Shown here piece after piece: positions 852-54,615 of a stretch of DNA of 64,000 nucleotides. Below the pieces are notes generated by a model that saw only the letters and a list, made by a program, of their open reading frames with translations, was not told where the DNA came from and did not search any database. Every line of letters starts with the position of its first letter. Within the stretch, counting starts at the first letter, position 1. The DNA is from Minisyncoccota bacterium (GTDB taxonomy: Bacteria > Patescibacteriota > Minisyncoccia > Phycocordibacterales > UBA9973): assembly GCA_041674285.1 (NCBI GenBank), contig JBAYVZ010000005.1, positions 5,176-69,175 of the forward strand, written 5' to 3'. The translations under genes were made by a program, and so were the position numbers.

Positions 852-859
852 TGTATAAT
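852..859 (+). promoter_or_regulatory. -10 box (TG-TATAAT) placed 6 nt before ATG 866
   Basis: TATAAT at 854-859 preceded by TG. Predicted +1 coincides with the ATG at 866. Confidence 0.45.
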
Positions 860-865
860 AAATAT

Positions 866-1423
866 ATGAGAGAAATAGAAGTTAAAGCAAAAATAAAAGA
901 TAAGGAAAAATTACTCAAAAAGTTAGCGGACCTTGGCTTTGTTTTTGATTCAGAAAAACATCAACACGATAGAGTATACTTTCCAAATGGAGTAGAATTC
1001 ACCGGTTCAAATATTATTGGGCAAAATATCCTCAGAATTCGCACAGAAGAAAAAGACGGCAAGAAAAAATCAATGTTTGCATTGAAGTATTCTGCGAGTG
1101 CCGCCCTCGACAAGATAGAGAAGGAATTCGAGATAGGGGATACAGATCAGATGCATGAGGTAATAAAAATGCTAGGCCACTACCTATTCATCGAGATAAA
1201 GAAACACAGAAGGACAGGCAAGTATGGAGATTACGAGATATGCATAGATGAAGTAGAAGATCTCGGATCATTCATAGAAGTAGAAAAGATAGTAGAGGAG
1301 GACATCGCCGGAGACCAGATCCTAATAGAACTAGACGAATTCTTAAATACTCTCGATATCGACCATTCCGACAAGACAATCCACGGCTACGATATACTGA
1401 TGGGACAAAGAAAAAACATGTAA
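866..1423 (+). CDS. CYTH-domain protein (class IV adenylate cyclase / triphosphatase-like)
   Basis: ORF 851..1423 trimmed to the second ATG. N-terminus MREIEVKAKI carries the ExExK CYTH signature, and the promoter geometry favours 866. Confidence 0.6.
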   Translation: MREIEVKAKIKDKEKLLKKLADLGFVFDSEKHQHDRVYFPNGVEFTGSNIIGQNILRIRTEEKDGKKKSMFALKYSASAALDKIEKEFEIGDTDQMHEVIKMLGHYLFIEIKKHRRTGKYGDYEICIDEVEDLGSFIEVEKIVEEDIAGDQILIELDEFLNTLDIDHSDKTIHGYDILMGQRKNM

Positions 1424-1444
1424 TAAACACATAGGTATAGGCCC

Positions 1445-1473
1445 TTGCAATTCTTTTTAATATGTGATACTAT
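1445..1473 (+). promoter_or_regulatory. sigma70-type promoter TTGCAA-17-TACTAT (TGn extended)
   Basis: TTGCAA 1445-1450, 17 nt spacer, TGaTACTAT ending at 1473. ATG 1480 lies 7 nt downstream, giving a leaderless geometry. Confidence 0.6.
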
Positions 1474-1479
1474 ATGCAC

Positions 1480-1740
1480 ATGTTAACAACGAAGAAAAAG
1501 GCAAATATAATCAAGAAAAATCAGATTCACGACAAGGACACTGGCTCTCCAGAAGTTCAGATCGCTGTTATTACTGAGAAAATTGATGAACTTGCATCAC
1601 ATTTAAAGAAGCACAAGAAGGACAATCACTCTCGTCGTGGACTTATACAGATGGTTGCTGACCGTCGCAAGCACCTCAAGTACCTTGAGAAGACAGACAA
1701 GACTCGTCACGAGACAGTAGCTAAAAAATTAAAAGCATAA
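1480..1740 (+). CDS. rpsO: 30S ribosomal protein S15
   Basis: MLTTKKKANIIKK...GSPEVQIAVITEKIDELASHLKKHKKDNHSRRGLIQMVADRRKHLKYL is typical uS15. Start moved from 1474 to 1480 on the promoter spacing. Confidence 0.93.
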   Translation: MLTTKKKANIIKKNQIHDKDTGSPEVQIAVITEKIDELASHLKKHKKDNHSRRGLIQMVADRRKHLKYLEKTDKTRHETVAKKLKA

Positions 1741-1742
1741 TT

Positions 1743-1772
1743 AAAACATCTCGACTAACCTCGAGATGTTTT
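1743..1772 (+). terminator. intrinsic terminator after rpsO
   Basis: 12-bp stem AAAACATCTCGA / TCGAGATGTTTT with loop CTAACC, followed by a T-rich tract. Confidence 0.7.
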
Positions 1773-1779
1773 AATTTGG

Positions 1780-1896
1780 TCCCGTTAGAGATGCGTTGTT
1801 GTAAATTTACGGGATAGTGTAAAATAAGAAGAGGAACATATTATTAACAATAATTAACAAGATACGGAAGTCTTTGGACTTCCTATCTCTAACGGG
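1780..1896 (+). repeat. start-codon-abutting structured element (family 1), copy 1
   Basis: 5' arm TCCCGTTAGAGAT (1780-1792) and 3' arm ATCTCTAACGGG (1885-1896). Inner hairpin GATACGGAAGTC-TTTG-GACTTCCTATC. ATG follows at 1897. Confidence 0.85.
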
Positions 1897-2400
1897 ATGA
1901 TAATCAAACATAAAGAACAAAGAGTTGGAGTGTTTATTGACACAGCCAATCTATATCACAGCGCAAAAAACCTCTATAAGAGAAAGGTAAACTTTGGTGC
2001 TGTACTAAAAGACGCAGTAGCAGGACGTAAACTAGTCCGTGCAACAGCATACGTGATCACTAGTGAGGGAGGCGACGAAAAGAGTTTCTTTGAAGCTCTC
2101 ACAAAGCTAGGCATAGAGACAAAGACAAAAGACCTCCAAGTATTTTCAGGTGGAGCAAAGAAGGGCGACTGGGATGTAGGTATAGCAGTAGATGCTATGA
2201 AGATGGCACCCCGTCTCGATGCAGTAGTACTAGTAGCAGGAGATGGGGACTTTATCCCTCTCGTAGAGTACCTCCGAAATACATATGGCACACAAGTAGA
2301 AGTGGTTTCATTTGGGAAATCTGCTTCTATGAAACTAAAAGAAGCTGCCGATGACTTCCTAGACTTATCAGTGAGTCCTCAAAAATACCTAATGAGATAA
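1897..2400 (+). CDS. NYN-domain (LabA/DUF88-like, PIN-like nuclease fold) protein
   Basis: RVGVFIDTANLYHS...GDWDVGIAVDAM...VLVAGDGDFIPLVEYLR pattern of NYN/LabA proteins. Confidence 0.75.
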   Translation: MIIKHKEQRVGVFIDTANLYHSAKNLYKRKVNFGAVLKDAVAGRKLVRATAYVITSEGGDEKSFFEALTKLGIETKTKDLQVFSGGAKKGDWDVGIAVDAMKMAPRLDAVVLVAGDGDFIPLVEYLRNTYGTQVEVVSFGKSASMKLKEAADDFLDLSVSPQKYLMR

Positions 2401-2405
2401 ATTGT

Positions 2406-4420: not shown

Positions 4421-4546
4421 TATAAATTCGTCGCACGTGTATCTTTTTTAAGGGCTTCTGCAGCGCGACTGGCGCGAAGCCTGAGTAAATTTTTAGCAAA
4501 AAATTTACGTACCTTAAAAAAGATATACGAAGAAAGAATTTATAAA
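4421..4546 (-). repeat. palindromic intergenic element (family 2), copy B (inverted relative to A and C)
   Basis: Its reverse complement aligns almost base for base with copy C (…CTTCGTATATCTTTTTTAAGGTACGTAAATTTTTTGCTAAAAATTTACTCAGGCTTCGCGCCAGTCGCGCTGCAGAAGCCC…). Ends 9 nt before the kbl ATG. Confidence 0.8.
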
Positions 4547-4554
4547 TTATTCAT

Positions 4555-5763
4555 ATGTACACAAAAAAATTTACAGAGTCACTCTCTCTTGATTTGAAAA
4601 ATATCGAAGAGAGTGGAAAGTTCAAAAAAGAAAAGATGATCGAGAGAGTTCAAGGTTCTCATATCAAGATAGGGGAGCAGGATTTTATCATGTACGCCTC
4701 AAACAATTATCTCGGACTAGCAGGTAGTAAATTCTCAACAGATGCAAACAAAGAGGGATTGGAGAAATACGGTTTTGGTATGGCATCGGTCAGATTCCTA
4801 TCCGGCACTCAGACTATACATAGACAACTAGAGGAGAGGATAGCAAAATTCATCGGCACAGAAGATGCGATCATATATTCTACAGGATTCATGGCCAACC
4901 TTGGATTGTTTGCTACGATAATAAATGAACCTCGTGGAAGTGAAGCTCCCTACAAAGATGTTATATATAGCGATGCAAACAATCATGCTTCAATCATCGA
5001 TGCATTCAAGCTCTGCAAAAAAGAAAATCTAGACAAGAGAATCTACAAGGGTGGGGACCTAGCGATGCTTGAGCAATTCCTGTCAGAAGATAAAGATAAA
5101 AATTACAGAACAAAGATTATCGCTACGGACGGGATATTCAGCATGGAGGGGAATTCTGCTGATTTGAAAAAGCTTGTAGATCTAGCTGAAAAGTACGAGG
5201 CCCTACTATTTGTAGACGACGCACACGGTATAGGAGTGATGGGTGATCTCGGAAGAGGTACACCAGAGAGCTGTGATGCACTCGGGAAAGTGGACATCGT
5301 ATCTGGTACATTTGGCAAGGCGCTCGGTGGAGCAGTCGGTGGGTATATAGGAGGTAGTAGAGAGCTCGTAGAATATCTGCGACAAAAATCTCGCACATAC
5401 CTATTCTCAAATGCGATGCCAGCATCGATAGCATACACGGGGATAAAGACACTTGACCTACTAGAGAGCGATGATACACCAATCAAAAAAGTAAAAGAAA
5501 ATGCATTATACTTCAGACAGAAACTCGAAGAGAACAATCTGCCGACACTGCACGGCAATCATGCTATCGTCCCACTGATGATAGGTGATGCGAACAAAGC
5601 AGCCGAGATGTCTAGAAAACTTTTTGATGATGGTATCTATGCAGTCTCACTATCATTCCCAGTAGTACCAGAGGGCGAAGCACGAATCAGATTCCAACTT
5701 TCTGCACTACATACAAAAGAGGACATAGACGAGACAATAGAAAAAATAAAGAAACTATACTAA
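4555..5763 (+). CDS. kbl: glycine C-acetyltransferase (2-amino-3-ketobutyrate CoA ligase)
   Basis: Alpha-oxoamine synthase pattern with PLP-lysine motif SGTFGKALGG and DDAHG. Paired with tdh. Confidence 0.85.
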   Translation: MYTKKFTESLSLDLKNIEESGKFKKEKMIERVQGSHIKIGEQDFIMYASNNYLGLAGSKFSTDANKEGLEKYGFGMASVRFLSGTQTIHRQLEERIAKFIGTEDAIIYSTGFMANLGLFATIINEPRGSEAPYKDVIYSDANNHASIIDAFKLCKKENLDKRIYKGGDLAMLEQFLSEDKDKNYRTKIIATDGIFSMEGNSADLKKLVDLAEKYEALLFVDDAHGIGVMGDLGRGTPESCDALGKVDIVSGTFGKALGGAVGGYIGGSRELVEYLRQKSRTYLFSNAMPASIAYTGIKTLDLLESDDTPIKKVKENALYFRQKLEENNLPTLHGNHAIVPLMIGDANKAAEMSRKLFDDGIYAVSLSFPVVPEGEARIRFQLSALHTKEDIDETIEKIKKLY

Positions 5764-5797: not shown

Positions 5798-7633
5798 TTA
5801 TTCTACTGTTACGCTCTTTGCTAAATTACGAGGCTTGTCTACATCTGCTCCACGTAGTACTGCCGTATGATATGCCAGTAGCTGTAGTGGTATCACAGAT
5901 AGTATCGGTATCCACTCATCAGGAACATTTGGAATCTCGACAATGTGATCAAAAATATTTTTCAATTCTTCGTTGCCACTGCGTACTATACCGATAGTCA
6001 GCGCTCCACGAGCTTTGACCTCTTGGACATTTGATATTACTTTTTCAATCAATGCATTATTTGTAGCGACTACAATAACAGGGAAATCTTTTTCTACTAG
6101 TGCTATAGGACCATGCTTCATCTCTGCTGCTGGATAACCCTCAGCATGGATATAAGAAATCTCTTTTAATTTCAACGCCCCCTCGAGTGCGACAGGGAAT
6201 AGTACTCCGCGCCCCAGGAACAATGCATTATCTTTTTCTTTTAAAATCTCGGCGATCTTTTTAACCTTTCCTTCTTCTTTCAATACTTGCTCTACCTTGT
6301 CTCCGATAGTAGACAATTCTTGAACCAAGAATACATATTCATCATGGCCTAGAGTGTCGCGATCTTTTGCTAGTAGTAGAGAGAGTAGTGATAGTATCAC
6401 AGCCTGACCAGTAAAAGCTTTTGTCGATGCTACTCCGATCTCGGGACCGACGTGGATATATGAACCTGCGTCAGTGATACGTGCGATAGATGAGCCGACT
6501 ACATTTGATATACCATATGTCATAGCACCGGATTCACGAGCGATCTGTAGTGCAGCTAGTGTATCTGCTGTCTCTCCGGATTGTGATATAGCTATTACGA
6601 TATCGTCTTTGTAAATTATCGGATTGCGATAACGGAACTCTGATGCATACTCTACTTCTACTGGAATCCTAGCTAGAGTCTCTATCAGATATTCACCGAC
6701 GAGCCCTGCGATCCAAGATGTGCCACAAGCAGTGATGATGATCCTCTTTGCATTTTTAAATTTATCAGCCATCTCTTCTATTCCACGTAGATGCACAGTA
6801 TTATCGGGCAGTATGTGGCCACGGAGTGCGTCGTGTATAGTACGAGCCTGCTCAAAAATTTCTTTTTGCATATAGTGATCGTATCCACCTTTTTCCAGCA
6901 TCTCAGCTTCGATATTCAGCTCCTCTATGAATGGAGTATGAGCTACACCATCGATAGACTTTACATAGAATTCACCATTACGCATTACTTTTGCCATATG
7001 ACCATCTTCTAGGTAGATCACACTCTTTGTGTACTCTACGATAGGGGACGCATCCGAAGCGATAAAAAATTCTTTTTCTCCGATGCCGATCACGAGTGGG
7101 CTACCCTTGCGTGCTACGATCAATGTATCGGGATCTTTTTCGTCTAGCACTACGATCGCATAAGCTCCTACTACCTGAGATAGGGCCTCGCGAACAGCCT
7201 CTTCGGTACTTAGATTGTCCTTTATTTTTACTTTTTCTATCAGACGGGCAAGGACTTCTGTATCAGTGTCACTCTTGAAAGTATCTCCATCTTTGAGGAG
7301 GGCAGTCTTTAAAGTAAGATAATTTTCTATAATACCGTTATGTATCAAGGCTATAGACCCAGATTCTGAGAGGTGGGGGTGAGCATTGCGATCCTCTGGT
7401 GCACCATGGGTGGCCCAGCGAGTATGACCTATGCCTATATTCCCAGCAGGATTATGGTCTTTTGCATACTTAAAAAGCTCGGCAACCTTGCCTTTCTTCT
7501 TGAAAACATTCATTTTTCCATCTAGAAGTGCAACTCCAGCTGAATCATACCCTCTATATTCGAGCCTTTCTAAACCCTTTATAATAATGGGAAAGGCTTC
7601 TCTTTTTCCTATGTATCCGATTATTCCACACAT
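5798..7633 (-). CDS. glmS: glutamine--fructose-6-phosphate aminotransferase
   Basis: MCGIIGYIG Ntn-amidotransferase N-terminus (Cys must follow the initiator Met, so the start is trimmed from 7660), two SIS domains, C-terminal ...KPRNLAKSVTVE. Confidence 0.95.
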   Translation of the reverse strand: MCGIIGYIGKREAFPIIIKGLERLEYRGYDSAGVALLDGKMNVFKKKGKVAELFKYAKDHNPAGNIGIGHTRWATHGAPEDRNAHPHLSESGSIALIHNGIIENYLTLKTALLKDGDTFKSDTDTEVLARLIEKVKIKDNLSTEEAVREALSQVVGAYAIVVLDEKDPDTLIVARKGSPLVIGIGEKEFFIASDASPIVEYTKSVIYLEDGHMAKVMRNGEFYVKSIDGVAHTPFIEELNIEAEMLEKGGYDHYMQKEIFEQARTIHDALRGHILPDNTVHLRGIEEMADKFKNAKRIIITACGTSWIAGLVGEYLIETLARIPVEVEYASEFRYRNPIIYKDDIVIAISQSGETADTLAALQIARESGAMTYGISNVVGSSIARITDAGSYIHVGPEIGVASTKAFTGQAVILSLLSLLLAKDRDTLGHDEYVFLVQELSTIGDKVEQVLKEEGKVKKIAEILKEKDNALFLGRGVLFPVALEGALKLKEISYIHAEGYPAAEMKHGPIALVEKDFPVIVVATNNALIEKVISNVQEVKARGALTIGIVRSGNEELKNIFDHIVEIPNVPDEWIPILSVIPLQLLAYHTAVLRGADVDKPRNLAKSVTVE

Positions 7634-7785
7634 ATAATATAATAAGCGGGCCAAATCCATCTGCTTTGTTGTCGATTCCGTTTACTCCCGCAATGTAGAT
7701 AACTACATCTTGGTCATAATACTCATCGACGCCTCGCATCTGCATTCGTCCGGCTGATTATATGATTATACATTTAAACCATTTA

Positions 7786-7917
7786 TTTTAAAAATCCTTT
7801 CTTCGCATATCTTTTCTAGGGTACGTAAATTTTTTGCTAAAAATTTACTCAGGCTTCGCGCCAGTTGCGCTGTAGAAGCCCCTAAAAAAGATACGCGTGC
7901 GACAGATTTTGCAAAAT
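7786..7917 (+). repeat. palindromic intergenic element (family 2), copy C
   Basis: CTTCGCATATCTTTTCTAGGGTACGTAAATTTTTTGCTAAAAATTTACTCAGGCTTCGCGCCAGTTGCGCTGTAGAAGCCCCTAAAAAAGATACGCGTGCGAC. Near-identical to A and to rc(B). Confidence 0.8.
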
Positions 7918-7935
7918 GATAAAATATAAAGAAGG

Positions 7936-8054
7936 TCCCGTTAGAAGTCATATATGTCATTCAAGCTACGGAGACTGTTTAAATAAATTATTTATATTCG
8001 ATATTATTAGTTAAATTATGTACGATAATCTAAAGATTATCTACTTCTAACGGG
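7936..8054 (+). repeat. start-codon-abutting structured element (family 1), copy 2
   Basis: Arms CCCGTTAGAAGT (7937-7948) / ACTTCTAACGGG (8043-8054). Inner hairpin GATAATC-TAAA-GATTATC. ATG at 8055. Confidence 0.8.
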
Positions 8055-34600: not shown

Positions 34601-34690
34601 ATGGAATCTGCGGGAGGTGGAGGAGGCCACGGTGGTGGACATGACGATCATGGTGGAGGGCACGACGATCATGGACATGGAGGTCACTAG
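31613..34690 (+). CDS. VirB6/TrbL-like polytopic membrane protein with large N-terminal ectodomain and His/Gly-rich tail
   Basis: 1025 aa with a signal-like N-terminus and at least 6 hydrophobic helices between about residues 290 and 640 (e.g. FYYAVFVPTSFLFALGGKFFDF, IFFIFLLLSAAVKMIL, FFLVTLLAVAINLIGFFVFISVALIFVG). Ends GGGGGHGGGHDDHGGGHDDHGHGGH. Confidence 0.62.
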   Translation: MKKFGSYLLLFLIIANLFAPISLQKNSQGNHAIKTNIASAENEADTEIIDNCKKSRVQYCISIRPTSASSSTKTVSILRINIYTTESWSTTENLSVHLTMKEQLSGLSVLDKTILSSEMQKVDSPYSKSNGFGQYTIPVLVNKELNPDTDYVTTVDSMSIVKVNNVGGVTTVLATSLATAITIKMSTACLVFLIPGIGQVALATLAAATLAAGAVYVYSALIDPVTNKEKFDIQFKTPPAAKDGEGPNITVGDKTYRGSTGDTIMPGCSMMPAILDEVANTSGTFMGCVAQLFYYAVFVPTSFLFALGGKFFDFALHYSIQDSSYRTPFVTEGWKIVRDLCNIFFIFLLLSAAVKMILDIGHGAKDMIVKVVIIGLLINFSLFTTQIVIDASNILTRLFYNSDAINIVVKNGQNSNGNGSVSSYVYGQNGQLPLSAALVDKVDPQAIILNAKNINIQSVDNGKVTNPNAADMEAANQGIGVGPFFLVTLLAVAINLIGFFVFISVALIFVGRVVGLWFSMIFVPLAFFSYAAPDLPEGLKRFGWKGWWAELIGTAMLAPVFMFMMYLILLFLSKGFMGLFYSNAQGAEFVLQTLVPFIVIMILLWQAKSVASDMSKGVASSVTTGLKVAGGAALALGGAGVGWAGRSVIRKISSKASAGTTSTQEYEAASRAEKDFGDSSLMQAYNKKRGFVGRNLGKLGTKIGMHKVFGQSTIGGGKDPTTGQILPTEVGGVMNGIGGRINKAQKKVGDIVHANHEYEKIAKELHLDPKIPYKDLGAVDKAAVDKKFRDSKRADTENNIKKGLVSGVPGENDYIKDQGNLARATSEYSADRKAEITQDFLLKNNATSVAGLSTDKKDALAAKIAAPLTESDNNKIKNKLTTEYKETVLKHETDHKLDYDLDHMAENSAKSISIKDRLSADSTRGTYNPLNLSKLDSIKNDAFATKLIFGITSAVAVGMRTGMKNIPQVNMGTGSGEFKDDFKNAFAEAIKGANFKMESAGGGGGHGGGHDDHGGGHDDHGHGGH

Positions 34691-34701
34691 AAAATAGATG
34701 G

Positions 34702-34821
34702 ATCCCGTTAGAGATGTGTTGTTAATAAAATAAAATATAAGTTAAAATTAAGTATAAAATAATATTACATAATAAAAATTAATAAGATACGGAAATGTAA
34801 ACATTTCCTATCTCTAATGGG
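34702..34821 (+). repeat. start-codon-abutting structured element (family 1), copy 5
   Basis: Arms ATCCCGTTAGAGAT (34702-34715) / ATCTCTAATGGGAT (34810-34823, one G-U wobble). Inner hairpin GATACGGAAATGT-AAA-CATTTCCTATC. The upstream stop lies 11 nt before the arm. Confidence 0.85.
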
Positions 34822-35979
34822 ATGGACAAAACAGAACTACAAAAACAAATAGCAGAATACTTTTCAAAGCTACCACCAGAAGCTGCTGCTATTTTTAGTA
34901 GCATGGCCTGGATAGATCAGACAGAAGAAATAGGCAATAGGTATAATCTGACAGAGGACCAATTAAAAGCCCTAATAACAGAGACTAGCCTGGCTCTCCT
35001 AGGAGTCATACACTTGAATCAATATGAGGATATATTAATCCAAGAACTCGCTCTCCCTAAAGAAAAGATAGCACCCATGATATCTGAAATAGATAGGGAA
35101 GTATTCGCATCTATCCGCCCAGCCCTAGAAAATACATTTGAATCAAACATAGAGAACATAGCAAAAAACAAATACGGTGGAGCTCAGAATATGGACGACA
35201 GATTCAAAGGGTTGCCACCTGCTGTCCAAGAGGCTATAACAAATTCCAACTACAAAAAGAACCTATACAATATAGCCAGTAAGTACAAATTGAACATGCC
35301 GAGCATGAGCACCCTAGATGAAGTAACCACAAAAGTCATGCTAGGGATAATCCCCAGTGAAAACTACAAAAATGAACTGTCAGCAGGGGTCCAAGCTTCG
35401 CCAGAAAATATAGATCTCATAGTATCAGAAGTCAATGAACAGGTTTTTAAAAACATAAGGTCATTCCTAATTCAAAATACAAAAAGAGATGACGCTGAAA
35501 AAGAAAAAATAGAGATACCGATACCTCCATATAAGAAATCAAATATCCCGACACCCCCATACAAGAAAACAGAGCCATTCGTTCCAGTAAATTTACCAAT
35601 CGCAGAATTTGAAAAAAAAGAGACGGATGATGGCATGAAAATATCGGGGATAGAGATACTAGCAGACGAGAATACAGAAGAAAAAGTAGACGAAGAAAAA
35701 GTTACAATAAAAGAAGACAATATAATGGTAAAATCTGGGGTCTCGGTAGTAGAAGAGGGTAACAATCCCCAGGAATCACACATTATACCGAGCAAGGAAA
35801 CACAAAAATCAGTATTGTACGGTATAGAGAACCCCCAATCAACAAAATCAATACTAAATATGAAGCTCCAGGGAGCAACATCAAGTGGAGTATCCAAAAG
35901 CAATCAACCAATATCAAATATACCTCCACAAAACACAACAAAGTCAGTGATTCATGATCCATATCATGAGCAAATATAA
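34822..35979 (+). CDS. hypothetical protein of the T4SS-like locus
   Basis: 385 aa with a short internal repeat IPIPPYKKSNIPTPPYKKTEP. No recognised domain. Confidence 0.55.
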   Translation: MDKTELQKQIAEYFSKLPPEAAAIFSSMAWIDQTEEIGNRYNLTEDQLKALITETSLALLGVIHLNQYEDILIQELALPKEKIAPMISEIDREVFASIRPALENTFESNIENIAKNKYGGAQNMDDRFKGLPPAVQEAITNSNYKKNLYNIASKYKLNMPSMSTLDEVTTKVMLGIIPSENYKNELSAGVQASPENIDLIVSEVNEQVFKNIRSFLIQNTKRDDAEKEKIEIPIPPYKKSNIPTPPYKKTEPFVPVNLPIAEFEKKETDDGMKISGIEILADENTEEKVDEEKVTIKEDNIMVKSGVSVVEEGNNPQESHIIPSKETQKSVLYGIENPQSTKSILNMKLQGATSSGVSKSNQPISNIPPQNTTKSVIHDPYHEQI

Positions 35980-35994
35980 ACACCAATCATATAC

Positions 35995-44807: not shown

Positions 44808-44924
44808 CCCATTAGAGATAGGAAATGCTTACATTTCCGTTTCTTTTTAATTTAAATTAATAAATACAACCTTATTTATAAGCAAACCTACATAAAAAAC
44901 ACAAACAACATATCTCTAACGGGA
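44808..44924 (-). repeat. start-codon-abutting structured element (family 1), copy 8
   Basis: Read in minus sense: arms TCCCGTTAGAGAT / ATCTCTAATGGG (G-U wobble). Inner hairpin ACGGAAATG-TAAG-CATTTCCT. The rnpA TAG stop (44916-44918) lies inside the 5' arm. Confidence 0.85.
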
Positions 44925-45252: not shown

Positions 45253-45393
45253 TTATTTCTTTATAGATACACTAGCGCGACCTTTTTGGCGTCGGCGGGC
45301 AGTGACCTTTCGGCCATTTTTTGTCTTTGTACGTACAAGAAAACCGTGTGTTTTAGCTCTTTTACGTTTGTTTGGTTGATATGTTTGAGACAT
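45253..45393 (-). CDS. rpmH: 50S ribosomal protein L34
   Basis: Below the ORF-track cutoff. Minus-strand translation gives [46 protein letters not shown]. The stop is 1 nt before the rnpA ATG. Confidence 0.9.
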
Positions 45394-45438
45394 AATGTCT
45401 AATATATACTATAATGGTGCATTATGCAACCCATAAAG

Positions 45439-45447
45439 TTATCCACA
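45439..45447 (+). promoter_or_regulatory. perfect DnaA box upstream of dnaA
   Basis: TTATCCACA at 45439-45447 in the rpmH-dnaA divergent spacer. Confidence 0.7.
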
Positions 45448-45515
45448 CGATATACACAGGATTGCACACAATTCAAACAGGACGATTATAAATCTTAACT
45501 AGTATAATAGGAACT

Positions 45516-46868
45516 ATGGTATCAGATACAAAAAAATTATGGGAAAGCTGTTTGGCGGAAATCGAATTATCCATTTCAAAAGCAAATTTTACAACCTGGT
45601 TTAAAAATACACAGATAGTAAAAGAAGAGGAGGGAGTACTATTTATAGGAGTACCAAATGAATTCGTAAAAGACTGGTTGAATAATAAATTTCACAAGCT
45701 AATCCTTAAAACTCTAATGAATTATGAGGATAGTGTACGCAATATAGAATACATAATCACAAAACACGAAGTAGTAAAACCAAAAACAGAAAATGAACAA
45801 GCCCCTATATCTATAAACAAAGAACTGCCACTAGCTGATCTCTATGTAAACAAGGACGACAACTTAAATCCTAAATATACATTCAATAATTTTATTGTTG
45901 GACCATTCAACGAGCTTGCATATGCAGTTTCCCAAGCTATCATCACCACACCAGGGGAAACATATAATCCATTCTTTGTATATGGAGGTACAGGTCTTGG
46001 TAAGACACATATGATCCAATCGATAGGGAATAGTATCAAGAATAAATTTCCAAATAAAAAGATTTATTATGTGAGTCTTGAAAAATTTGCTATTGACTAC
46101 ATAAACTCAATTCAAAACAAAAATCCAAATGGATTTAAAGAGAAGTATAGAAAATACGATGTGATAATTATGGATGACATCCAATTCATATCAGGAAAAG
46201 AAAAGACTCAAGAAGAATTATTCCATTTGTTCAATATATTCCACGAAAACAATAAGCAAATTGTTTTTTCTTCAGATAAACATCCAAACTTTATCCAAGG
46301 ATTAGAAGAACGTCTACAATCTAGATTCGCTTCTGGTATGACAGTACAGATAACAGAGCCTGACTATGAATCACGCGTAGCGATCATCAAAGCTAAGCTA
46401 CAGAAGACAAATATAATAGTGGATGAACCAGTCATCTCCTACCTTGCAGAGGTACTAGAGGGTAATATACGAGAATTGGAGGGTAGTTTAAATACAATCA
46501 TCTGCCAATCTCAACTCAAAGATAAATCACTCTCTTTAAATGAGACAAAAAATTTAATTAAAAATAATATCCGACCAAAGAAAAATGTAGCTATCAAAGA
46601 TATTATTAAAATAATTGCTGATTATTACAATATCCCCGAAGCTCACGTATATGAGAAGACCAGGAGAAAGGAGATAGTCCAAGCTCGCCAAGTAGCGATG
46701 TACCTACTCCGAGAAGATTTCAATATTTCATACCCACTAATAGGTCAAAAGTTTGGGGGTAGGGATCACACCACAGTCATACACTCACACCTCAAAATAA
46801 AAGAAGATTTAAAGACGAATCCAAGCCTACTCCAAGAGATAGAGAGGATCAGAATCATGTTCAAATAG
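45516..46868 (+). CDS. dnaA: chromosomal replication initiator protein DnaA
   Basis: 450 aa, Walker A GGTGLGKTH, a sensor region and a C-terminal DNA-binding helix RQVAMYLLRE. TATAAT (45503-45508) lies 7 nt before the ATG. Confidence 0.95.
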   Translation: MVSDTKKLWESCLAEIELSISKANFTTWFKNTQIVKEEEGVLFIGVPNEFVKDWLNNKFHKLILKTLMNYEDSVRNIEYIITKHEVVKPKTENEQAPISINKELPLADLYVNKDDNLNPKYTFNNFIVGPFNELAYAVSQAIITTPGETYNPFFVYGGTGLGKTHMIQSIGNSIKNKFPNKKIYYVSLEKFAIDYINSIQNKNPNGFKEKYRKYDVIIMDDIQFISGKEKTQEELFHLFNIFHENNKQIVFSSDKHPNFIQGLEERLQSRFASGMTVQITEPDYESRVAIIKAKLQKTNIIVDEPVISYLAEVLEGNIRELEGSLNTIICQSQLKDKSLSLNETKNLIKNNIRPKKNVAIKDIIKIIADYYNIPEAHVYEKTRRKEIVQARQVAMYLLREDFNISYPLIGQKFGGRDHTTVIHSHLKIKEDLKTNPSLLQEIERIRIMFK

Positions 46869-48491: not shown

Positions 48492-51005
48492 TTACTTTAC
48501 GTAAAAGTTTAATTTTTGCTGACTTGTACCACCATCCATATCGTATATTTTTACCAGTATTGTATTTCCTCCACCGTCTATACCTAGCTCACTAGGGATA
48601 AATGATACACCATAAGGATCATTTTTTAAGGAAGTTAGATAATTGTTGTTTACAAATATATCTATTTTTTGTATTGGACTCTGGCTCTTTACCTCTACTT
48701 TAAAAGATATTGTCTCATCTTTATTGTAGGGTGTGTTTAGTAGGTTTTTAATTGTAAAACTCGGTTTTGTCGATGAGTTGTGGATATTGTCATAAAACAG
48801 TGGTTTATCTTTTAGACTCACGTATTTATATTTGTAAGAATTTTTTGACCACCAGTTCTGTACACTTATCTCAAAGTGATCATACAGGGAATCACTCGAA
48901 GGTCCAGGAGTCTTTTCATTCTTTGGGTCTTTTTTGTCTACCCAGTACAAGATAGTATGAACATTTGTTAGTGATTTTTCTTCAATACTTTCTTTTGGGG
49001 TGAACTCTGTCGCTAATCCTCCAGATTTTTTATCAACCTTGAAAGTATCACCACCTTGCCAGTATCCTCGGAGTAGGGGATTCAAATTTGAATCTACTTC
49101 ATCTGGCTTGTTAAATGTTTCATCTTTGGGTAGTTTTGTTAATGCTTGCATCATTATTTGGTTCCAGATTGGTCCAGCGAGAGATACACCACCTTTTTTC
49201 ATTGGTATATTATCATTGTTACCCACCCATACACCCACCACCACAGATGGGGTATATCCTATAGTCCAAGCATCTTTGTTGTCATTTGTTGTTCCAGTCT
49301 TTACTGCAGCCTGGATACCTTCTGGTAGTACTAGAGCTGAGTTTGCTCCGTATGTAGGGATACGAGCATTGTTGTCGGTAAGAATGTCTGCCAAAATTCT
49401 TGTTGAATTTGGATTCAATATTTGTTCTGGTCTGTCTTTGTATTCTTCTAATATATTCCCTGTACCATCTGATATTGAAAGAACTCCTGTATTTGGATGT
49501 CTGATACCTTCTGTGGCGAATACGCTATATACAGAAGTCATATCTAAGAGCTTTGTCTCTCCACCTCCGATCACTAGAGACAATCCATATCTATTTGCAT
49601 CATTGAGTGTAGTCACACCCAGGTCGTGAGCCATCTTTATAGCATCTTGTACTCCTACTAGGTATAGAAGTTTTACTGCTATTACGTTTATGGACTGAGC
49701 TAGAGCATCTTTGAGTGTCATCGGTCCATGGAATGCATTGTCGTAATTGTCTGGATTATAACAATCTGTTTTTTTGTTTTTACCTTTTGGGTTGCTATAT
49801 GCATCACAACTTGTAGAAAATTCTGTAGGTACGTCGAATAGTACTGTATCTTTTGTGTATCCCTTTTCAAATGCGGCTGCATAGACTATAGGCTTGAATG
49901 ATGATCCCGGCTGTCTCTCTGCTGTAGCTACATTGAAATTCCCATCTATACTTTTATCAAAATAATTTCGTGATCCAACCATAGATAGTATTTGACCTGT
50001 CTTTGGATCCATTACCACTGCGGCTGCATTTTTTCCATCCCAGTTTTTTTCATTATCCAGAGCTCTTTCTAGGACTATAGCTTCTGCTTTTTTCTGTAAT
50101 TCAAAATCAAGAGTTGTGGTAACTTTTAATCCGCCGTTCTCTACCATCTCTACTCCATATTTCTTTTCCAAGTAATCTTTTATGAAGAATACAAAGTGTG
50201 GAGCTGCTATATACATCGGTTGCGCAGGTAGGAATTCTACTTTTTCTGCCACAGCTTCATTGTATTGATTTTCTGTGATGAATTTTAAATCCAGCATCCT
50301 TTTTAATACTAGATTTTTCCTTGTATCTAGGCGTGCGCGACCCTTATAAGGGGAGTAGTATGTAGGACCATTTGGTATCGCTGCTAGGTATGCAGATTCA
50401 GCGAGTGTCAGATCTATTGGTGCTTTACCAAAGAATGCTTTTGAAGCTTCCTCTATTCCGTAAATATTTCCACCATAAGGGGCTTCGTTTAGATACAGAG
50501 CTAGAATTTCGTCCTTGTTCATTACTTTTTCAAGCTTGATTGCCAGGATCCATTCTTTTATCTTTCTGGTCACAGTCCTCTCTGATGTCAGTAATGTCTG
50601 CTTTATGATCTGCTGAGTGATAGTCGATCCACCTTGGATTTTTCCACCTGTCATATTTGCCCACACAGCACGAATCAGTGACTTTAATCTAACTCCGTGA
50701 TGTTGGTAGAATTCAGAATCTTCTATAGCAACAGTGGCATTCTTGCTATATGTACCCATAGACTCATAGGGGATGACAGTACGTTTTATGTTGCTGTGTA
50801 CGTCATATAATATGATGGTTCCAGTCCTGTCATATATCTTTGTAGAGCTGGCTATTTTGCGCTCGGTAAAGAGTTTAAAGTCTGGTAATTGTAATGTGCT
50901 AGTCCAGATTGCTAATATACCTACGACCAATAGTCCAAAACCAAAAATACCCAAAATCCAATTTTTGAGCTGGTGTTTATTAAATTTAAACTTAATTTTC
51001 TTCAT
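48492..51005 (-). CDS. class A penicillin-binding protein (glycosyltransferase + transpeptidase)
   Basis: GT51 motifs EDSEFYQHHG and GGSTITQQ. Transpeptidase motifs SSFKP (SxxK), SIN and KTGTT. N-terminal TM anchor. TGtTATTAT -10 box 6 nt before the ATG. Confidence 0.9.
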   Translation of the reverse strand: MKKIKFKFNKHQLKNWILGIFGFGLLVVGILAIWTSTLQLPDFKLFTERKIASSTKIYDRTGTIILYDVHSNIKRTVIPYESMGTYSKNATVAIEDSEFYQHHGVRLKSLIRAVWANMTGGKIQGGSTITQQIIKQTLLTSERTVTRKIKEWILAIKLEKVMNKDEILALYLNEAPYGGNIYGIEEASKAFFGKAPIDLTLAESAYLAAIPNGPTYYSPYKGRARLDTRKNLVLKRMLDLKFITENQYNEAVAEKVEFLPAQPMYIAAPHFVFFIKDYLEKKYGVEMVENGGLKVTTTLDFELQKKAEAIVLERALDNEKNWDGKNAAAVVMDPKTGQILSMVGSRNYFDKSIDGNFNVATAERQPGSSFKPIVYAAAFEKGYTKDTVLFDVPTEFSTSCDAYSNPKGKNKKTDCYNPDNYDNAFHGPMTLKDALAQSINVIAVKLLYLVGVQDAIKMAHDLGVTTLNDANRYGLSLVIGGGETKLLDMTSVYSVFATEGIRHPNTGVLSISDGTGNILEEYKDRPEQILNPNSTRILADILTDNNARIPTYGANSALVLPEGIQAAVKTGTTNDNKDAWTIGYTPSVVVGVWVGNNDNIPMKKGGVSLAGPIWNQIMMQALTKLPKDETFNKPDEVDSNLNPLLRGYWQGGDTFKVDKKSGGLATEFTPKESIEEKSLTNVHTILYWVDKKDPKNEKTPGPSSDSLYDHFEISVQNWWSKNSYKYKYVSLKDKPLFYDNIHNSSTKPSFTIKNLLNTPYNKDETISFKVEVKSQSPIQKIDIFVNNNYLTSLKNDPYGVSFIPSELGIDGGGNTILVKIYDMDGGTSQQKLNFYVK

Positions 51006-51077
51006 AAGTTAATAATAACATACTATATTCTATAAATATGGCAATTGTGGGATAATTTAATTATGAGAAAAAAATCA

Positions 51078-51192
51078 TCAACCCCGTCCTCTGATTACAG
51101 AGTCCACCCCTCAAGAGGGGAATTAAATATGAATACAAAAAATACATCCACCCCACCTTTTGATTACAAAAGGCACCCCTCAAGAGGGGAAT
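51078..51192 (+). repeat. two direct family-3 units
   Basis: TCAACCCCGTCCTCTGATTACAGAGTCCACCCCTCAAGAGGGGAAT (51078-51123) and TCCACCCCACCTTTTGATTACAAAAGGCACCCCTCAAGAGGGGAAT (51147-51192). Confidence 0.8.
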
Positions 51193-51599
51193 TTTGGGAT
51201 ACAGGTTCTTTGTATCCATATTGGGAAATTCCTAAAAATAAACTTTTAATCTCACGAGCAAAAGAATTAAGAAAAGCTGGCAATTTAGCGGAAGTTATTT
51301 TTTGGAAAACTTTCAATGATAAAAATAAAATAGGTTTTGATATTGATCGGCAAGTTATAGTAGGGAACTATATTGTCGATTTTTTTATCCCGGAATTGGG
51401 TTTAGTTTTTGAAATAGACGGATCGAGTCACGATAATAAAATAGATTATGATGCCGAACGGGATGCATTTATGAATGACCTTGGATTGTTTGTTATTCGA
51501 ATTCCTGATGTAGATGTGAAGAAAAATATGGAAAGTGTCTATAATTTTGTAACTAATATAATTTTAGAAAGAACAAATAAACTCAAGGGTTTTTCTTAG
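51129..51599 (+). CDS. DUF559 (Vsr-like) endonuclease-domain protein
   Basis: C-terminal ...AEVIFWKTFNDKNKIGFDIDRQVIVGNYIVDFFIPELGLVFEIDGSSHD...RDAFMNDLGLFVIRIP matches the DUF559 pattern. The true start is uncertain because the 5' end overlaps repeat DNA. Confidence 0.65.
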   Translation: MNTKNTSTPPFDYKRHPSRGEFWDTGSLYPYWEIPKNKLLISRAKELRKAGNLAEVIFWKTFNDKNKIGFDIDRQVIVGNYIVDFFIPELGLVFEIDGSSHDNKIDYDAERDAFMNDLGLFVIRIPDVDVKKNMESVYNFVTNIILERTNKLKGFS

Positions 51600-51826: not shown

Positions 51827-51857
51827 TGTATTGAATTTGGTGTGGTAAAGTATAAAT

Positions 51858-53051
51858 ATGATAAAGAATGATACAAATGAATTGCTAAATCGGGGAATAG
51901 AGAATATCTACCCTTCAAAAGCATACCTAGAATCTCGTATTGCAAAGGGTGAAAAGCTCACTATCTATCTAGGAGTAGATCCTACTGGTCCGACACTACA
52001 CCTCGGGCATGCTATACCACTACTCAAACTTTCAGAATTTCAAAAAGCTGGCCATAAGATCATCCTTCTTATGGGTGATTTTACTGCGATGATCGGTGAC
52101 CCGACAGACAAGGGTACTGCTCGTGTGCCTCTAACCCACAAGCAAGTGATGGCGAATTTGAAAAATTACAAAAAGCAGGCAAGCTCAATTATTTCATTTT
52201 CTGGCAAGAATGCAGCTCAAATAAAATTCAATTCAAAGTGGCTCGGTAAGATGAACTTTGAAGACGTGCTGAGTCTCGCATCAAATATGACAGTACAGCA
52301 GATGCTAGAACGTGATATGTTCTCAAAGAGAATGGAAGAGGGCAAGCCAATATTTATTCATGAATTTATGTATCCACTCATGCAGGGATACGACTCTGTA
52401 GCTATGGATATAGATGGAGAGATCGGGGGCAATGATCAGACATTCAACATGCTCCAAGGTCGCAACTTGATGAAGACTCTCAAGAATAAAGAAAAATTTG
52501 TCATTACCGTAAAACTCCTCGAAGATAGTAGTGGTAAAAAGATGGGCAAGACAGAGGGTAATATGGTCGCCTTATCAGACACCCCAGAGGAGATGTATGG
52601 CAAGGTCATGAGCTGGACTGACGGCATGATCCTCCCAGGATTTGAATTGTGTACTACTGTATCCCTCGAAGATATGGAAGCTATGGCTACCGATATTGCC
52701 AAGGGTATGAATCCTCGCGATCTGAAGATGCGCCTAGCTCGTGCGGTTGTGAATACTTTTTACGGAGAAAAGAAAGCATTGGATGCAGAAAATAATTTTA
52801 TCTCTACATTCCAAAAATCTGAAATACCAGAAGATCTGCCTGAGGTAAAAGTAGGGGATGGGACACTACTAGTAGATGTACTCCTCGCAAACAAGATAAT
52901 TGCTTCAAAGACAGAATTCCGCAGGCTCGTAGATGAGGGTGCTATTACCAATCTGGATACTGATAAAAAGGTGGATAGTCATACGGCACATGCTGTATCA
53001 GCTGTATACCGCATAGGTAAAAAGCGCTTTTGTAAAATTAAAATAGGATAG
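51858..53051 (+). CDS. tyrS: tyrosine--tRNA ligase
   Basis: HIGH-type motif PTGPTLHLGH, KMSKS-type motif KMGKT and a C-terminal S4-like domain. Confidence 0.93.
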   Translation: MIKNDTNELLNRGIENIYPSKAYLESRIAKGEKLTIYLGVDPTGPTLHLGHAIPLLKLSEFQKAGHKIILLMGDFTAMIGDPTDKGTARVPLTHKQVMANLKNYKKQASSIISFSGKNAAQIKFNSKWLGKMNFEDVLSLASNMTVQQMLERDMFSKRMEEGKPIFIHEFMYPLMQGYDSVAMDIDGEIGGNDQTFNMLQGRNLMKTLKNKEKFVITVKLLEDSSGKKMGKTEGNMVALSDTPEEMYGKVMSWTDGMILPGFELCTTVSLEDMEAMATDIAKGMNPRDLKMRLARAVVNTFYGEKKALDAENNFISTFQKSEIPEDLPEVKVGDGTLLVDVLLANKIIASKTEFRRLVDEGAITNLDTDKKVDSHTAHAVSAVYRIGKKRFCKIKIG

Positions 53052-53053
53052 TT

Positions 53054-53081
53054 AAAACACGAGGTTCATTCCTCGTGTTTT
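53054..53081 (+). terminator. intrinsic terminator
   Basis: AAAACACGAGG-TTCATT-CCTCGTGTTTT. Confidence 0.75.
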
Positions 53082-53090
53082 TGATATAAT
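53082..53090 (+). promoter_or_regulatory. extended -10 box TGATATAAT, 6 nt before ATG 53097
   Basis: TGATATAAT at 53082-53090, ATG at 53097. Confidence 0.55.
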
Positions 53091-53096
53091 AAATAT

Positions 53097-53693
53097 ATGA
53101 ATAAAATTACACTCAATAATGAATTTTACAATGCTACAGAAAATGATTTTCCTTATTTAGTTGTCTATGGAGAAAAGTCTGGTGGGTCACACTTTTCTGT
53201 GACTTTGATGGCAGAGCTTTTTTCCTCTGGTTCTAAAATATTATTTTTTACAGCCTTTCCGATGGCTACCGATAATTTTTTAGGGCAAATTGGGTCTGAC
53301 AATTCAAATGTCGCAATTGTTAAAAATATGGAAGATTTAAAACAATACGAAAACAGCCAGGCTATTATCTTGGATAGTGGAAATGAAATCTTGTTTTTAC
53401 AGGCGATAAAAGAATTGAAAGATATAAATGAGAGAATAATACTCGTGAAAAATATAGAGGCATCTAGTGACGAGTTATTGGGTTCTTGCTTGAGTTTCAA
53501 GAATATTATTTTATCTGGTGATATTGATACTTGTGTGTCAAAAGAAAAGATTATCAAAAAAACTTTTAAGAGTGTTGTTGTTTTTACAAAGCCAGAGACT
53601 TCACTTTCGATAGATGTTCCAGAACTAGAAAAATGGACTGGGTATTTAAATGGGGGAGATAAAAAAGGAATTATTAAAGTTAAAGTAAGTTAA
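53097..53693 (+). CDS. hypothetical protein
   Basis: 198 aa ORF with its own promoter and terminator. No recognised domain. Confidence 0.5.
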   Translation: MNKITLNNEFYNATENDFPYLVVYGEKSGGSHFSVTLMAELFSSGSKILFFTAFPMATDNFLGQIGSDNSNVAIVKNMEDLKQYENSQAIILDSGNEILFLQAIKELKDINERIILVKNIEASSDELLGSCLSFKNIILSGDIDTCVSKEKIIKKTFKSVVVFTKPETSLSIDVPELEKWTGYLNGGDKKGIIKVKVS

Positions 53694-53724
53694 AAATTTT
53701 TGGAGGAATTGTGATAAGTGTGAT

Positions 53725-53751
53725 AAAAAATCCCCACACGGGGGATTTTTT
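53725..53751. terminator. bidirectional hairpin terminator
   Basis: AAAAAATCCCC-ACAC-GGGGATTTTTT between convergent genes. Confidence 0.7.
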
Positions 53752-53753
53752 AT

Positions 53754-53939
53754 TTATATAGCGTCTACATCATCTGAAGAGAATTCATCTTCGAATCCCT
53801 CTTCGTCATCTTCATCGATTATCTCACCATCATCATCTAGTAGGGCATCATCTAGATCTAGATCTGCATCTTCACTAAAAGCAGAATCATCGTCTTCGTT
53901 TCCAAACCCTATTTTGAATTCTTCTTCATCAATACTCAT
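53754..53939 (-). CDS. small extremely acidic protein (61 aa)
   Basis: MSIDEEEFKIGFGNEDDDSAFSEDADLDLDDALLDDDGEIIDEDDEEGFEDEFSSDDVDAI. Roughly half the residues are D or E by eye. A terminator follows. Confidence 0.4.
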   Translation of the reverse strand: MSIDEEEFKIGFGNEDDDSAFSEDADLDLDDALLDDDGEIIDEDDEEGFEDEFSSDDVDAI

Positions 53940-54025
53940 ATTGTATTATCGATAATTTAAATTATTAAACGACTCATTTTTGTAATAGATTATTTGTAAC
54001 AAAATCTATTTTTCTTTGCAAGGGG

Positions 54026-54511
54026 TCAAATCTGTGGAAATCTTTCGCAGGCAAAACAGGTCAATCCTATGGCTATGGCGTCTAGCTCGTCGTCTGATTT
54101 TATGGTTCTCTCTATCTTGATCAATTTAGGTACCATACTCATCACTGCACTCTTGTCTGACTTGCCGTAGCCCGTCACAGCTATCTTGATCTGAGGGGGA
54201 GTGTATTCAAATACTTGTAGCCCGTACTTCATGGCAGAGTATATGATCACCCCACGAGCTTCGGCTACGCCCATGACGGTCTTTTGGTTGTTTGTAAAAA
54301 AAAGTTTTTCTATGGCTAATGCTTTTGGTTTGTATTCTTTTGATATACTTTCTATTTTTTCACCTATCAGTAGTATTCTCTCATAAAAGGGGAGCTTTGC
54401 ACTTGTCTTGAAGCACTCTGAATACAATAGCGTCTCCTTGCTCTTGCCGTCCTTTTCTATTATCGCGATTCCGATTCTCTCGAATCCCGGGTCTATGCCA
54501 AGTATGATCAT
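54026..54511 (-). CDS. ruvC: crossover junction endodeoxyribonuclease RuvC
   Basis: MIILGIDPGFERIGIAIIEK N-terminus. Start trimmed from 54556 because TACAAT lies 6 nt before this ATG. Ends with TGA. Confidence 0.88.
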   Translation of the reverse strand: MIILGIDPGFERIGIAIIEKDGKSKETLLYSECFKTSAKLPFYERILLIGEKIESISKEYKPKALAIEKLFFTNNQKTVMGVAEARGVIIYSAMKYGLQVFEYTPPQIKIAVTGYGKSDKSAVMSMVPKLIKIERTIKSDDELDAIAIGLTCFACERFPQI

Positions 54512-54615
54512 AGTATGATTGTATTTTGTATGGAAGTGTTTTGCAAATTTTGCCAAAATAGTTTTTTTGTGTTATCTTGAAGAAAAAAACTTTCCACAAT
54601 TTAAATTTTTAACTC

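Follow-up and report, generated by a model that had tools for sequence, protein, structure and literature searches.

Boxes before start codons in the dnaA region

The window analysed here, a 64,000-nucleotide stretch of contig JBAYVZ010000005.1 (33-41% G+C across its length), is judged by its sequence to be part of a Candidatus Nomurabacteria/Paceibacterota genome (Parcubacteria, ultra-small bacteria of the candidate phyla radiation, CPR). It holds rpmH, yidD-yidC-jag, dnaA, rpsO, a PNPase-like gene, glmS, ruvC and a block of genes resembling a type IV secretion system (T4SS), together with two genes that we take from gene order to be rnpA (a 111-aa open reading frame, ORF, that was not scanned) and dnaN. 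The subject of this work is the distance between -10 promoter boxes and start codons in this region, and a short element, termed family-1, that ends at start codons. The original prediction, made from the letters of the window, had listed 13 genes in which a -10 box ends 6 or 7 nt before the start codon and had suggested that such first cistrons are translated from leaderless mRNAs. Inspection of the sequence found every one of these pairs where it had been placed (13/13), with a plus-strand spacing of 6 nt at starts 866, 1480, 12652, 13202, 26786, 31613, 36457, 39104 and 53097 and of 7 nt at 45516. Further cases were seen at 25561 (rsmA), 26763 (minus strand), 45393 (minus strand; rpmH, 7 nt) and 51858 (tRNA synthetase). 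Of about 58 genes in the window, 17 are solid cases and 2 are weak:

854-868, plus strand: CYTH/class IV adenylate cyclase; TATAAT 854-859, 6 nt, ATG 866; profile aligned from position 1
1465-1482, plus strand: rpsO (S15); TGaTACTAT 1465-1473, 6 nt, ATG 1480
12637-12654, plus strand: DksA/TraR-type zinc-finger protein; TGaTAAAAT 12637-12645, 6 nt, ATG 12652
13167-13204, plus strand: YifB/ComM; TTGAAT 13167-13172, 17-nt spacer, TATAAT 13190-13195, 6 nt, ATG 13202
25546-25563, plus strand: rsmA/ksgA; TGgTAGTAT 25546-25554, 6 nt, ATG 25561; orthologues in L090 and L092 have TGcTAnTAT-N6-ATG
26761-26775, minus strand: 126-aa conserved ORF; TATCAT 26770-26775, 6 nt, ATG 26763; box overlaps the divergent 26786 box
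26771-26788, plus strand: 315-aa membrane-anchored protein; TGaTATAAT 26771-26779, 6 nt, GTG 26786
31524-31615, plus strand: 1025-aa protein with an apparent N-terminal signal peptide; intrinsic terminator 31524-31556, TGaTATAAT 31598-31606, 6 nt, GTG 31613
36397-36459, plus strand: TrsD/VirB4-N-like protein; terminator-like hairpin 36397-36421, TGaTATAAT 36442-36450, 6 nt, ATG 36457
39092-39106, plus strand: 328-aa protein; TATAAT 39092-39097, 6 nt, GTG 39104
44457-44474, minus strand: yidC; TGcTACAAT 44466-44474, 6 nt, ATG 44459
45391-45406, minus strand: rpmH (L34), divergent from dnaA; TATATT 45401-45406, 7 nt, ATG 45393
45503-45518, plus strand: dnaA; TATAAT 45503-45508, 7 nt, ATG 45516
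51003-51020, minus strand: 837-aa ORF (penicillin-binding protein is the earlier reader's label; not scanned); TGtTATTAT 51012-51020, 6 nt, ATG 51005
51843-51860, plus strand: class I Tyr/Trp-type tRNA synthetase; TGgTAAAGT 51843-51851, 6 nt, ATG 51858
53054-53099, plus strand: 198-aa protein; terminator hairpin 53054-53081 abuts TGaTATAAT 53082-53090, 6 nt, ATG 53097
54509-54523, minus strand: ruvC; TACAAT 54518-54523, 6 nt, ATG 54511
4543-4557, plus strand: weak candidate, aminotransferase; TAAATT, 6 nt, ATG 4555
7631-7644, minus strand: weak candidate, glmS; TATTAT, 5 nt, ATG 7633

A TGn extension precedes the hexamer in 10 of the 19 cases. The same nonamer, TGATATAAT, stands before four starts (26786, 31613, 36457 and 53097), and TTGAAT at 13167-13172 lies 17 nt 5' of the box for start 13202, both as described in the original prediction.

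That prediction had also proposed a statistic of the distance between -10 motifs and starts, and this distance was enriched at 6 nt both in the window and in 78 related genomes. Within the window, 7 of the 21 TGnTAnAAT sites were followed by ATG or GTG after exactly 6 nt, with 0-2 at each other offset from 0 to 30, and 9/92 TATAAT sites had a start at 6 nt versus about 2-3 at other offsets. Among the intergenic TGnTAnnnT boxes facing a gene, 11/23 were at a spacing of exactly 6. Relatives were taken as 80 loci from a DnaA-based scan with one genome per species; L-numbers (L001, L090 and so on) denote loci of related genomes, and cross-genome spacing counts were made on the 78 other genomes. 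All 80 loci belong to Candidatus Paceibacterota, Nomurabacteria or Parcubacteria metagenome-assembled genomes (MAGs), some of which carry the submitter's label Saccharibacteria. DnaA identity over the best tblastn segment was 100% for L001, a related strain with about 84-96% nucleotide identity to the window, and 95% for L002. Across the 78 genomes, TGnTAnAAT with an ATG or GTG opening an ORF of at least 80 codons occurred at spacing 6 in 54/524, versus 0-12 at other offsets. The spacing also depended on gene class: TAnAAT was found at spacing 6 before 74/298 genes with a long codirectional upstream gap, 22/64 with a middle gap and 24/301 that are tightly coupled. TAnnnT at 6-7 nt was present in about 33-43% of first-cistron-like genes, roughly fourfold above background, in every tier down to 65% DnaA identity; the most distant three loci, L078-L080, gave no spacing spike.

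Could the pattern be a chance or compositional artefact of AT-rich intergenic DNA, with starts chosen to fit the box? TAnnnT is frequent in such DNA, and the earlier reader had moved three starts (866, 1480 and 54511) to fit the box. Starts were therefore also set mechanically, as the longest ORF or the first ATG and independently of the earlier reader's choices, and TAnnnT still stood at spacing 6 in 13-14 of 57 window genes; shuffling of the upstream regions (2000 shuffles) gave a mean of 2.5 (sd 1.5, max 9). There was no spike at neighbouring offsets, orthologues conserve the geometry, and 55 annotated Escherichia coli starts used as a control had TAnnnT at 6-7 nt in 2/55. An artefact is vanishingly improbable and is refuted by the spacing spike in the 78 genomes, the shuffles and the conservation at orthologues.

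Alignment of 246 geometry-bearing genes from the window and the related loci gave the consensus TGnTAtAAT, with a hexamer TAtAAT having A at positions 4-5. G was present at -14 in 57%, T at -15 in 50%, T at -17 in 70% and TTG at -35 to -33 in about 50%, with a 17-nt spacer, and the discriminator was A-rich; the TGn extension, the TTG, the T at -17 and the discriminator were not selected for in building the set. This is the pattern of extended -10 sigma-70 promoters (TG at -15/-14 before TAnnnT, with a weak -35), and it supports the view that the boxes are sigma-70-type extended -10 promoters, rather than an effect of composition. The Bacteroidetes-type promoter, a TAnnTTTG -7 element with leadered mRNAs, does not describe these sequences. 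Strong intrinsic terminators end 1-40 nt before the boxes of 31613, 36457 and 53097. Only 22 bp lie between the divergent starts 26763 and 26786, whose opposite-strand boxes, TATCAT and TGATATAAT, overlap, so that there is no room for a leader on either side; L090 and L092 keep this arrangement. With a 6-nt spacing, the canonical +1 (the seventh base after the hexamer) falls on the A or G of the start codon.

These features also bear on a different explanation, in which the TATAAT-like box would be an A/U-rich translation signal, independent of Shine-Dalgarno (SD) pairing, that works on longer mRNAs in an S1-dependent or Bacteroidetes-type manner. In its favour, some internal cistrons and some with a leader are clearly translated without an SD in this lineage, and the regions before starts are very A/T-rich (28% G+C). 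However, the motif is the sigma-70 -10 consensus with TG at -15/-14 and TTG at -35 across a 17-nt spacer, first cistrons, but not tightly coupled genes, show an excess of the box, terminators end 1-40 nt upstream of it, and only 22 bp separate the 26763 and 26786 starts. Furthermore, the same nonamer is found 19 nt from start 63911 and 14 nt from 61520, a position that is not fixed, unlike that of a ribosome-binding site, and only the purine-initial ATG and GTG occur at 6-7 nt, as for a transcription start. We consider a translation signal of this kind very unlikely.

A closer variant places the transcription start 1-3 nt before the start codon, which would give very short leaders and mRNAs that are not strictly leaderless. 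In relatives, boxes 7 nt (dnaA, rpmH) or 8 nt from the start codon are common, and in other bacteria the distance from the -10 box to the transcription start varies by 1-2 nt. The dominant spacing is nevertheless exactly 6 nt, which puts the canonical +1 on the codon's A or G, and we think this variant unlikely. Since a 1-3 nt leader cannot hold an SD, it would be functionally the same pathway as leaderless initiation.

The geometry was kept at orthologues over 45-95% protein identity while the sequence of the 6-7 nt spacer drifted. A box at 5-8 nt was found before 73/73 yidC orthologues (68 of them at 6 nt), 66/78 dnaA orthologues (55 at 7 nt), 59/66 orthologues of the 51858 tRNA synthetase, 39/44 of the 39104 gene and 39/60 of the 51005 ORF. 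L090-L092 also retain it at rsmA, at the 26763/26786 pair and at the 31613 gene. These counts show purifying selection on the geometry.

Other motifs occupy some of the same upstream regions. Between the divergent rpmH and dnaA promoters (45394-45515), and upstream of dnaA in most loci, lie conserved DnaA-box-like repeats, TTATCCACA/TTATCAACA and TTAATCCAG/TTAATTAAG; the segment is likely an oriC-proximal regulatory region. Upstream of the tRNA synthetase and 51005 orthologues, many loci (for example L016, L018, L021 and L024-L026) share a conserved motif, CGGACAAAG/CTTTGTCCG, in the -35 region of two divergent promoters; the window lacks this motif and has an additional gene (51063-51599) between the two. 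Orthologues of 36457 in L002, L013, L015, L018, L029 and L030 have tandem GTAATTA/TAATTAGTAATT repeats before the ATG instead of the TGATATAAT promoter.

Start codons, Shine-Dalgarno signals and internal cistrons

The start-codon corrections made in the original prediction hold. The CYTH profile aligns from its first position to a start at 866, GlmS has to start at 7633 because the protein must begin MCG, and RuvC read from 54511 begins, in our reading of the window, with MIIL, like the RuvC of E. coli. Profile or homologue alignments support the N-termini of CYTH, DnaA, YifB and the 26786 protein. The mechanically longest ORFs at 851, 1474 and 54556 begin 6-45 nt before the supported starts 866, 1480 and 54511, and the public gene call of the 31613 orthologue in L092 (11844-11867) wrongly starts at an upstream ATG inside the -10 box. 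Annotated starts in these MAGs are probably displaced upstream as a rule.

Three GTG starts had been flagged for checking, and all are real starts with support from orthologues. At 39104, TAnnnT-N6/7-GTG is present in 33/44 orthologues and ATG in 6. Homologues of 45-79% identity to the 26786 protein share its residues 2-15 (NKENKKSYLPS.EF), which rules out the next in-frame GTG (codon 16) as the start; two database entries start with V, the L090 orthologue has TGATATAAT-N6-GTG, and the L092 orthologue has the same box with ATG at the same position. The 31613 orthologues in L090 and L092 have TGnTATAAT-N6-GTG, and in the window an upstream ATG-AAG is closed by an in-frame TGA. The start codons of the 246 geometry genes were 230 ATG, 15 GTG and 1 TTG, from calls that preferred a nearby downstream ATG over an upstream GTG or TTG. 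TTG was absent from the commonest triplets at the leaderless position, where ATG far outnumbered GTG. The accompanying remark that leaderless GUG is inefficient in model bacteria applies to E. coli, where it is weak, but not to mycobacteria, where it is robust: in Mycobacterium smegmatis leaderless GUG is as efficient as AUG, and TTG and CTG fail (PMC4633059). By this analogy, leaderless GUG would not be anomalous here.

SD signals were nearly absent. The five internal genes cited in the original prediction indeed have no GGAGG-like sequence before the start, and over the window and the related loci GGAGG was found at -20 to -4 in 5/1131 genes and GGAG in 13/1131. SD-like 4-mers (GGAG, GAGG, AGGA) at -18 to -4 preceded 2/50 window genes and 3-4% of genes in relatives; the same script found them before 36/55 (65%) of the annotated E. 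coli starts. SD-led initiation, with a GGAGG-like motif 5-10 nt before starts, is thus not the pattern here. In Parcubacteria, only 48% of 16S genes were found to carry the anti-SD CCTCCT, and SD helices were inferred not to form in an anti-SD-less Parcubacteria subgroup (PMC9297842). Conserved 16S/23S motifs were not found in the window or the 80 loci, a scan of viral contigs for the 16S 1492 region gave 7 matches, all unrelated, and an Rfam scan at gathering score and a tRNA scan of the window gave no matches.

Internal cistrons showed a different signature. Codirectional stop-start gaps in the window and the 80 loci peaked at +1 (73 cases, TAAnATG), followed by +2 to +8, and overlaps were rare; -4/-1 gene overlaps are typical of most bacteria. 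Because of these short gaps, TAnnnT also has a spurious peak at spacing 0 in front of internal genes. A stop within a few nucleotides of the next start is the hallmark of translational coupling; the short gaps fit termination-reinitiation without an SD, a step that we infer from the gaps.

We consider it likely that this is an SD-free genome in which first cistrons behind extended -10 promoters are leaderless and internal cistrons are reached by reinitiation. In such a scheme an extended -10 promoter would be placed so that RNA polymerase starts on the start-codon purine or within 1-2 nt of it, at about one gene in three overall and at about 40% of first cistrons. The mRNA would then begin with AUG or GUG and be translated by the leaderless pathway, with ribosome and initiator tRNA binding a start codon at the 5' end. 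Internal cistrons, which begin 1-8 nt behind the stop of the gene before, would most likely be translated by termination-reinitiation. The proposal of leaderless first cistrons is supported as far as sequence goes by the promoter hallmarks, the conservation, the terminators and the lack of SD signals. The exact transcription start, the leaderless mechanism and a loss of the 16S anti-SD in this organism are what we infer from these features.

Several observations weigh against this scheme. TAnnnT alone is low in information, and the 60 nt upstream of genes are only 28% G+C. The geometry occurs at about one third to one half of first cistrons, not at all of them, and is in the minority at orthologues of the TrsD-like gene (36457; box at 5-8 nt in 22/47) and of ruvC (13/64), which is mostly coupled to the upstream gene. 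Orthologue counts resample the same sites many times and are non-independent. A generic sigma-70 -35/-10 scanner called 50 sites versus 64.8 in shuffles, with yidC the sole case called, so the promoter call rests on the extended -10. Transcription may start 1-3 nt upstream, and additional upstream promoters may exist. Finally, of the extended -10 boxes between genes, about half are 12-130 nt away from the gene (among them 15826, 61520, 63911, 54616 and 56249); some mRNAs with a leader but no SD must then be translated too, and leaderless entry would not be the sole route. Translation of such leadered mRNAs is the main limit on the leaderless claim.

All three GTG starts lie in the T4SS-like block (26786-43078), which encodes large membrane or secreted proteins along with TrsD-like and VirB4/TraG-like ATPases. 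The block is kept next to dnaA in many relatives and so is probably a core feature rather than a recent island. A metagenome scan with a T4SS-like gene returned one locus, L081, 88% identical overall and nearly invariant around both GTG starts, which is too near-identical for an informative comparison.

The family-1 element at start codons

Eight window genes are preceded by an element of about 116 nt (76-120 nt in relatives) that ends exactly at the ATG:

1780-1896, plus strand: family-1 before the gene of an NYN-domain protein; ends at ATG 1897
7936-8054, plus strand: family-1 before SIS/PGI; ends at ATG 8055; TGATAAAAT at 7917-7925 upstream
11618-11735, plus strand: family-1; ends at ATG 11736; upstream ATG 11613, 5 nt after the stop of the 713-aa PNPase-like gene
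23252-23388, plus strand: family-1 before a UvrD-like helicase; TATAAT 23252-23257, 7 nt, upstream ATG 23265, element 23270-23388, real ATG 23389
34703-34821, plus strand: family-1; ends at ATG 34822; upstream ATG 34698; empty site in L090 and L092
37117-37232, plus strand: family-1; 116-nt insertion; direct repeat ATGGG at 37112-37116 and 37233-37237
43584-43700, minus strand: family-1 before an R3H/Jag-like gene; ends at ATG 43583; upstream ATG 43705; absent from L002
44808-44924, minus strand: family-1 before yidD; ends at ATG 44807; absent from L002

The ends of the element are inverted repeats, (T)CCCGTTAGAGAT ... ATCTCTAACGGG(A). Its arms form a conserved 14-bp helix (CCCGUUAG.../...CUAACGGG) that includes the A and U of the start codon, so that stable pairing partly hides the real AUG in every case. 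Helix positions -1 to +10 are paired in 16/16 distinct copies, with compensatory double changes at five positions; the 12 G-U pairs and the lack of A-C pairs point to an RNA helix of the sense strand. All window copies (8/8) fold into the helix, with z-scores of -3.6 to -5.4. When two-armed copies were searched for without requiring an ATG, every one still ended at ATG.

Empty and filled sites could be compared directly. At 1283-1287 L001 has the empty site TAAtATGGGAATT, and the window at 37112-37237 reads ATGGG-[116 nt]-ATGGGAATT, a 5-bp duplication that contains the start codon; identity between the two across this site is about 91-96%. Upstream and downstream ATGNN agree in 10 of the 11 copies having an upstream ATG, and the duplication is missing in 5/16 copies. 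In L029 (about 9880-10000), L037 (about 380-500) and L042 (about 9880-10000), dnaA carries family-1 directly after the conserved TATAAT-N7-ATGNAT, with ATGNAT repeated behind the element, and the element subtypes differ among the three, which suggests repeated insertion at the same start codon. With terminal inverted repeats, many copies, a target-site duplication and empty versus filled sites, family-1 has the make-up of a miniature inverted-repeat transposable element (MITE) and is a mobile insertion. No transposase partner was seen, in a search of arm pairs up to 220 nt only, and a permissive Rfam scan of one copy gave chance-level matches only (E 0.47 or worse).

The element seems to sit where ribosomes are delivered, at a 5'-terminal AUG or 1-10 nt after an upstream stop. 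At 23252 the TATAAT is a putative leaderless-type promoter feeding the element, and in L090 and L091 the 23389 gene has a plain leaderless start without it. Before yidD, the upstream 111-aa ORF stops at a TAG inside the 5' arm (44916-44924, minus strand; ..TAC TTG TCC CGT TAG), as it does in L029 and L033; in L002, which is without the element, the upstream ORF (rnpA by gene order) ends ..TAC TAG. A flank like that of the yidD element precedes a different gene in L030.

Other identities for the element were tried and rejected. An integron attC site has another core order, and the genes flanking family-1 are housekeeping genes; core motifs of a hammerhead or other small ribozyme are absent and there is no Rfam match; and a palindromic operator does not suit a hairpin whose sequence varies with compensatory changes. 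The idea that the TrsD-like and VirB4-like genes are a split VirB4 gene rejoined by bypassing was likewise rejected, two separate proteins being normal in Gram-positive systems.

Expression of the downstream genes might depend on upstream ribosomes that unmask the AUG, on RNase III processing, on an internal promoter or on shunting. We suggest tentatively, as a rather doubtful extension of the leaderless scheme, that SD/anti-SD recognition has been abandoned for 5'-terminal RTG entry and reinitiation and that family-1 is adapted to that regime. It would insert after the fifth base of an ORF, duplicate ATGNN and pair the A and U of the real AUG in its helix, and a ribosome arriving at the old AUG or at an upstream stop would be handed over to the new AUG. 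Handover could occur by melting of the helix, which would unmask the AUG, by RNase III processing that recreates a leaderless or near-leaderless end, or by a shunt- or bypass-like transfer across the helix base, comparable to CaMV shunting or T4 gene 60.

Significance and comparison with known systems

The CPR or Patescibacteria make up a large share of bacterial diversity, are almost entirely uncultured and have reduced ribosomes. If true, the proposed scheme would explain gene expression in a phylum whose anti-SD is often undetectable (found in 48% of Parcubacteria 16S genes, as cited above). The geometry would give a practical rule for start-codon correction in thousands of MAGs and a guide to promoter and start architecture for genetic tools in these organisms. 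It would also add an independent lineage to the case for leaderless initiation as a mode that is stable and sufficient by itself rather than a relic. A literature search found no description of leaderless architecture for CPR, Patescibacteria, Parcubacteria or Saccharibacteria, no placement of Parcubacteria or Paceibacteria in a GeneMarkS-2-type leaderless class, and no description of MITEs in CPR. This is a known kind of gene organisation in a new lineage, a CPR clade, combined with a complete lack of SD signals.

Leaderless transcripts of mycobacteria were reportedly described by Cortes and colleagues in 2013. As seen or proposed in this lineage, mycobacteria and other Actinobacteria place the -10 box directly before the start, begin the mRNA at AUG or GUG and have no SD on leaderless genes (Shell et al. 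2015, PMC4633059). Mycobacteria likewise use GUG but not TTG or CTG, keep the geometry between related species, and have starts that gene callers often misplace (PMC4633059). They differ in having a canonical anti-SD and SD sequences on leadered genes, with about one quarter of mRNAs leaderless, whereas here SD signals are missing in all gene classes, the extended -10 promoters are AT-rich and the evidence is the sequence itself. Within the same phylum, a subgroup of Parcubacteria has lost the anti-SD (Tsurumaki et al. 2022, PMC9297842), in line with the SD depletion seen here; that study examined rRNA and ribosomal proteins, not mRNA start contexts.

Leaderless-dominated genomes are known from Deinococcus-Thermus and haloarchaea, and GeneMarkS-2 has 'leaderless' genome classes. 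There, as here, many genes have a promoter signal at a fixed short distance before the start in place of the signal of a ribosome-binding site; in archaea, the signal differs, being TATA/BRE at about -27. Bacteroidetes likewise lack SD motifs genome-wide. They differ in their TAnnTTTG -7 element and leadered, A-rich 5' untranslated regions, in contrast to the TG-extended TAtAAT at the start codon described here.

Family-1 resembles the Correia/NEMIS elements of Neisseria and the enterobacterial ERIC elements, which are co-transcribed MITEs, in its size (about 76-120 nt), terminal inverted repeats and target-site duplication. It also shares with them presence/absence polymorphism between strains, a location in transcribed spacers and a long mRNA hairpin. 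Family-1 differs in that its two-armed copies end exactly at a start codon and its duplication is ATGNN, and in that the A and U of the AUG are part of its helix, where compensatory changes and sense-strand G-U pairs are seen.

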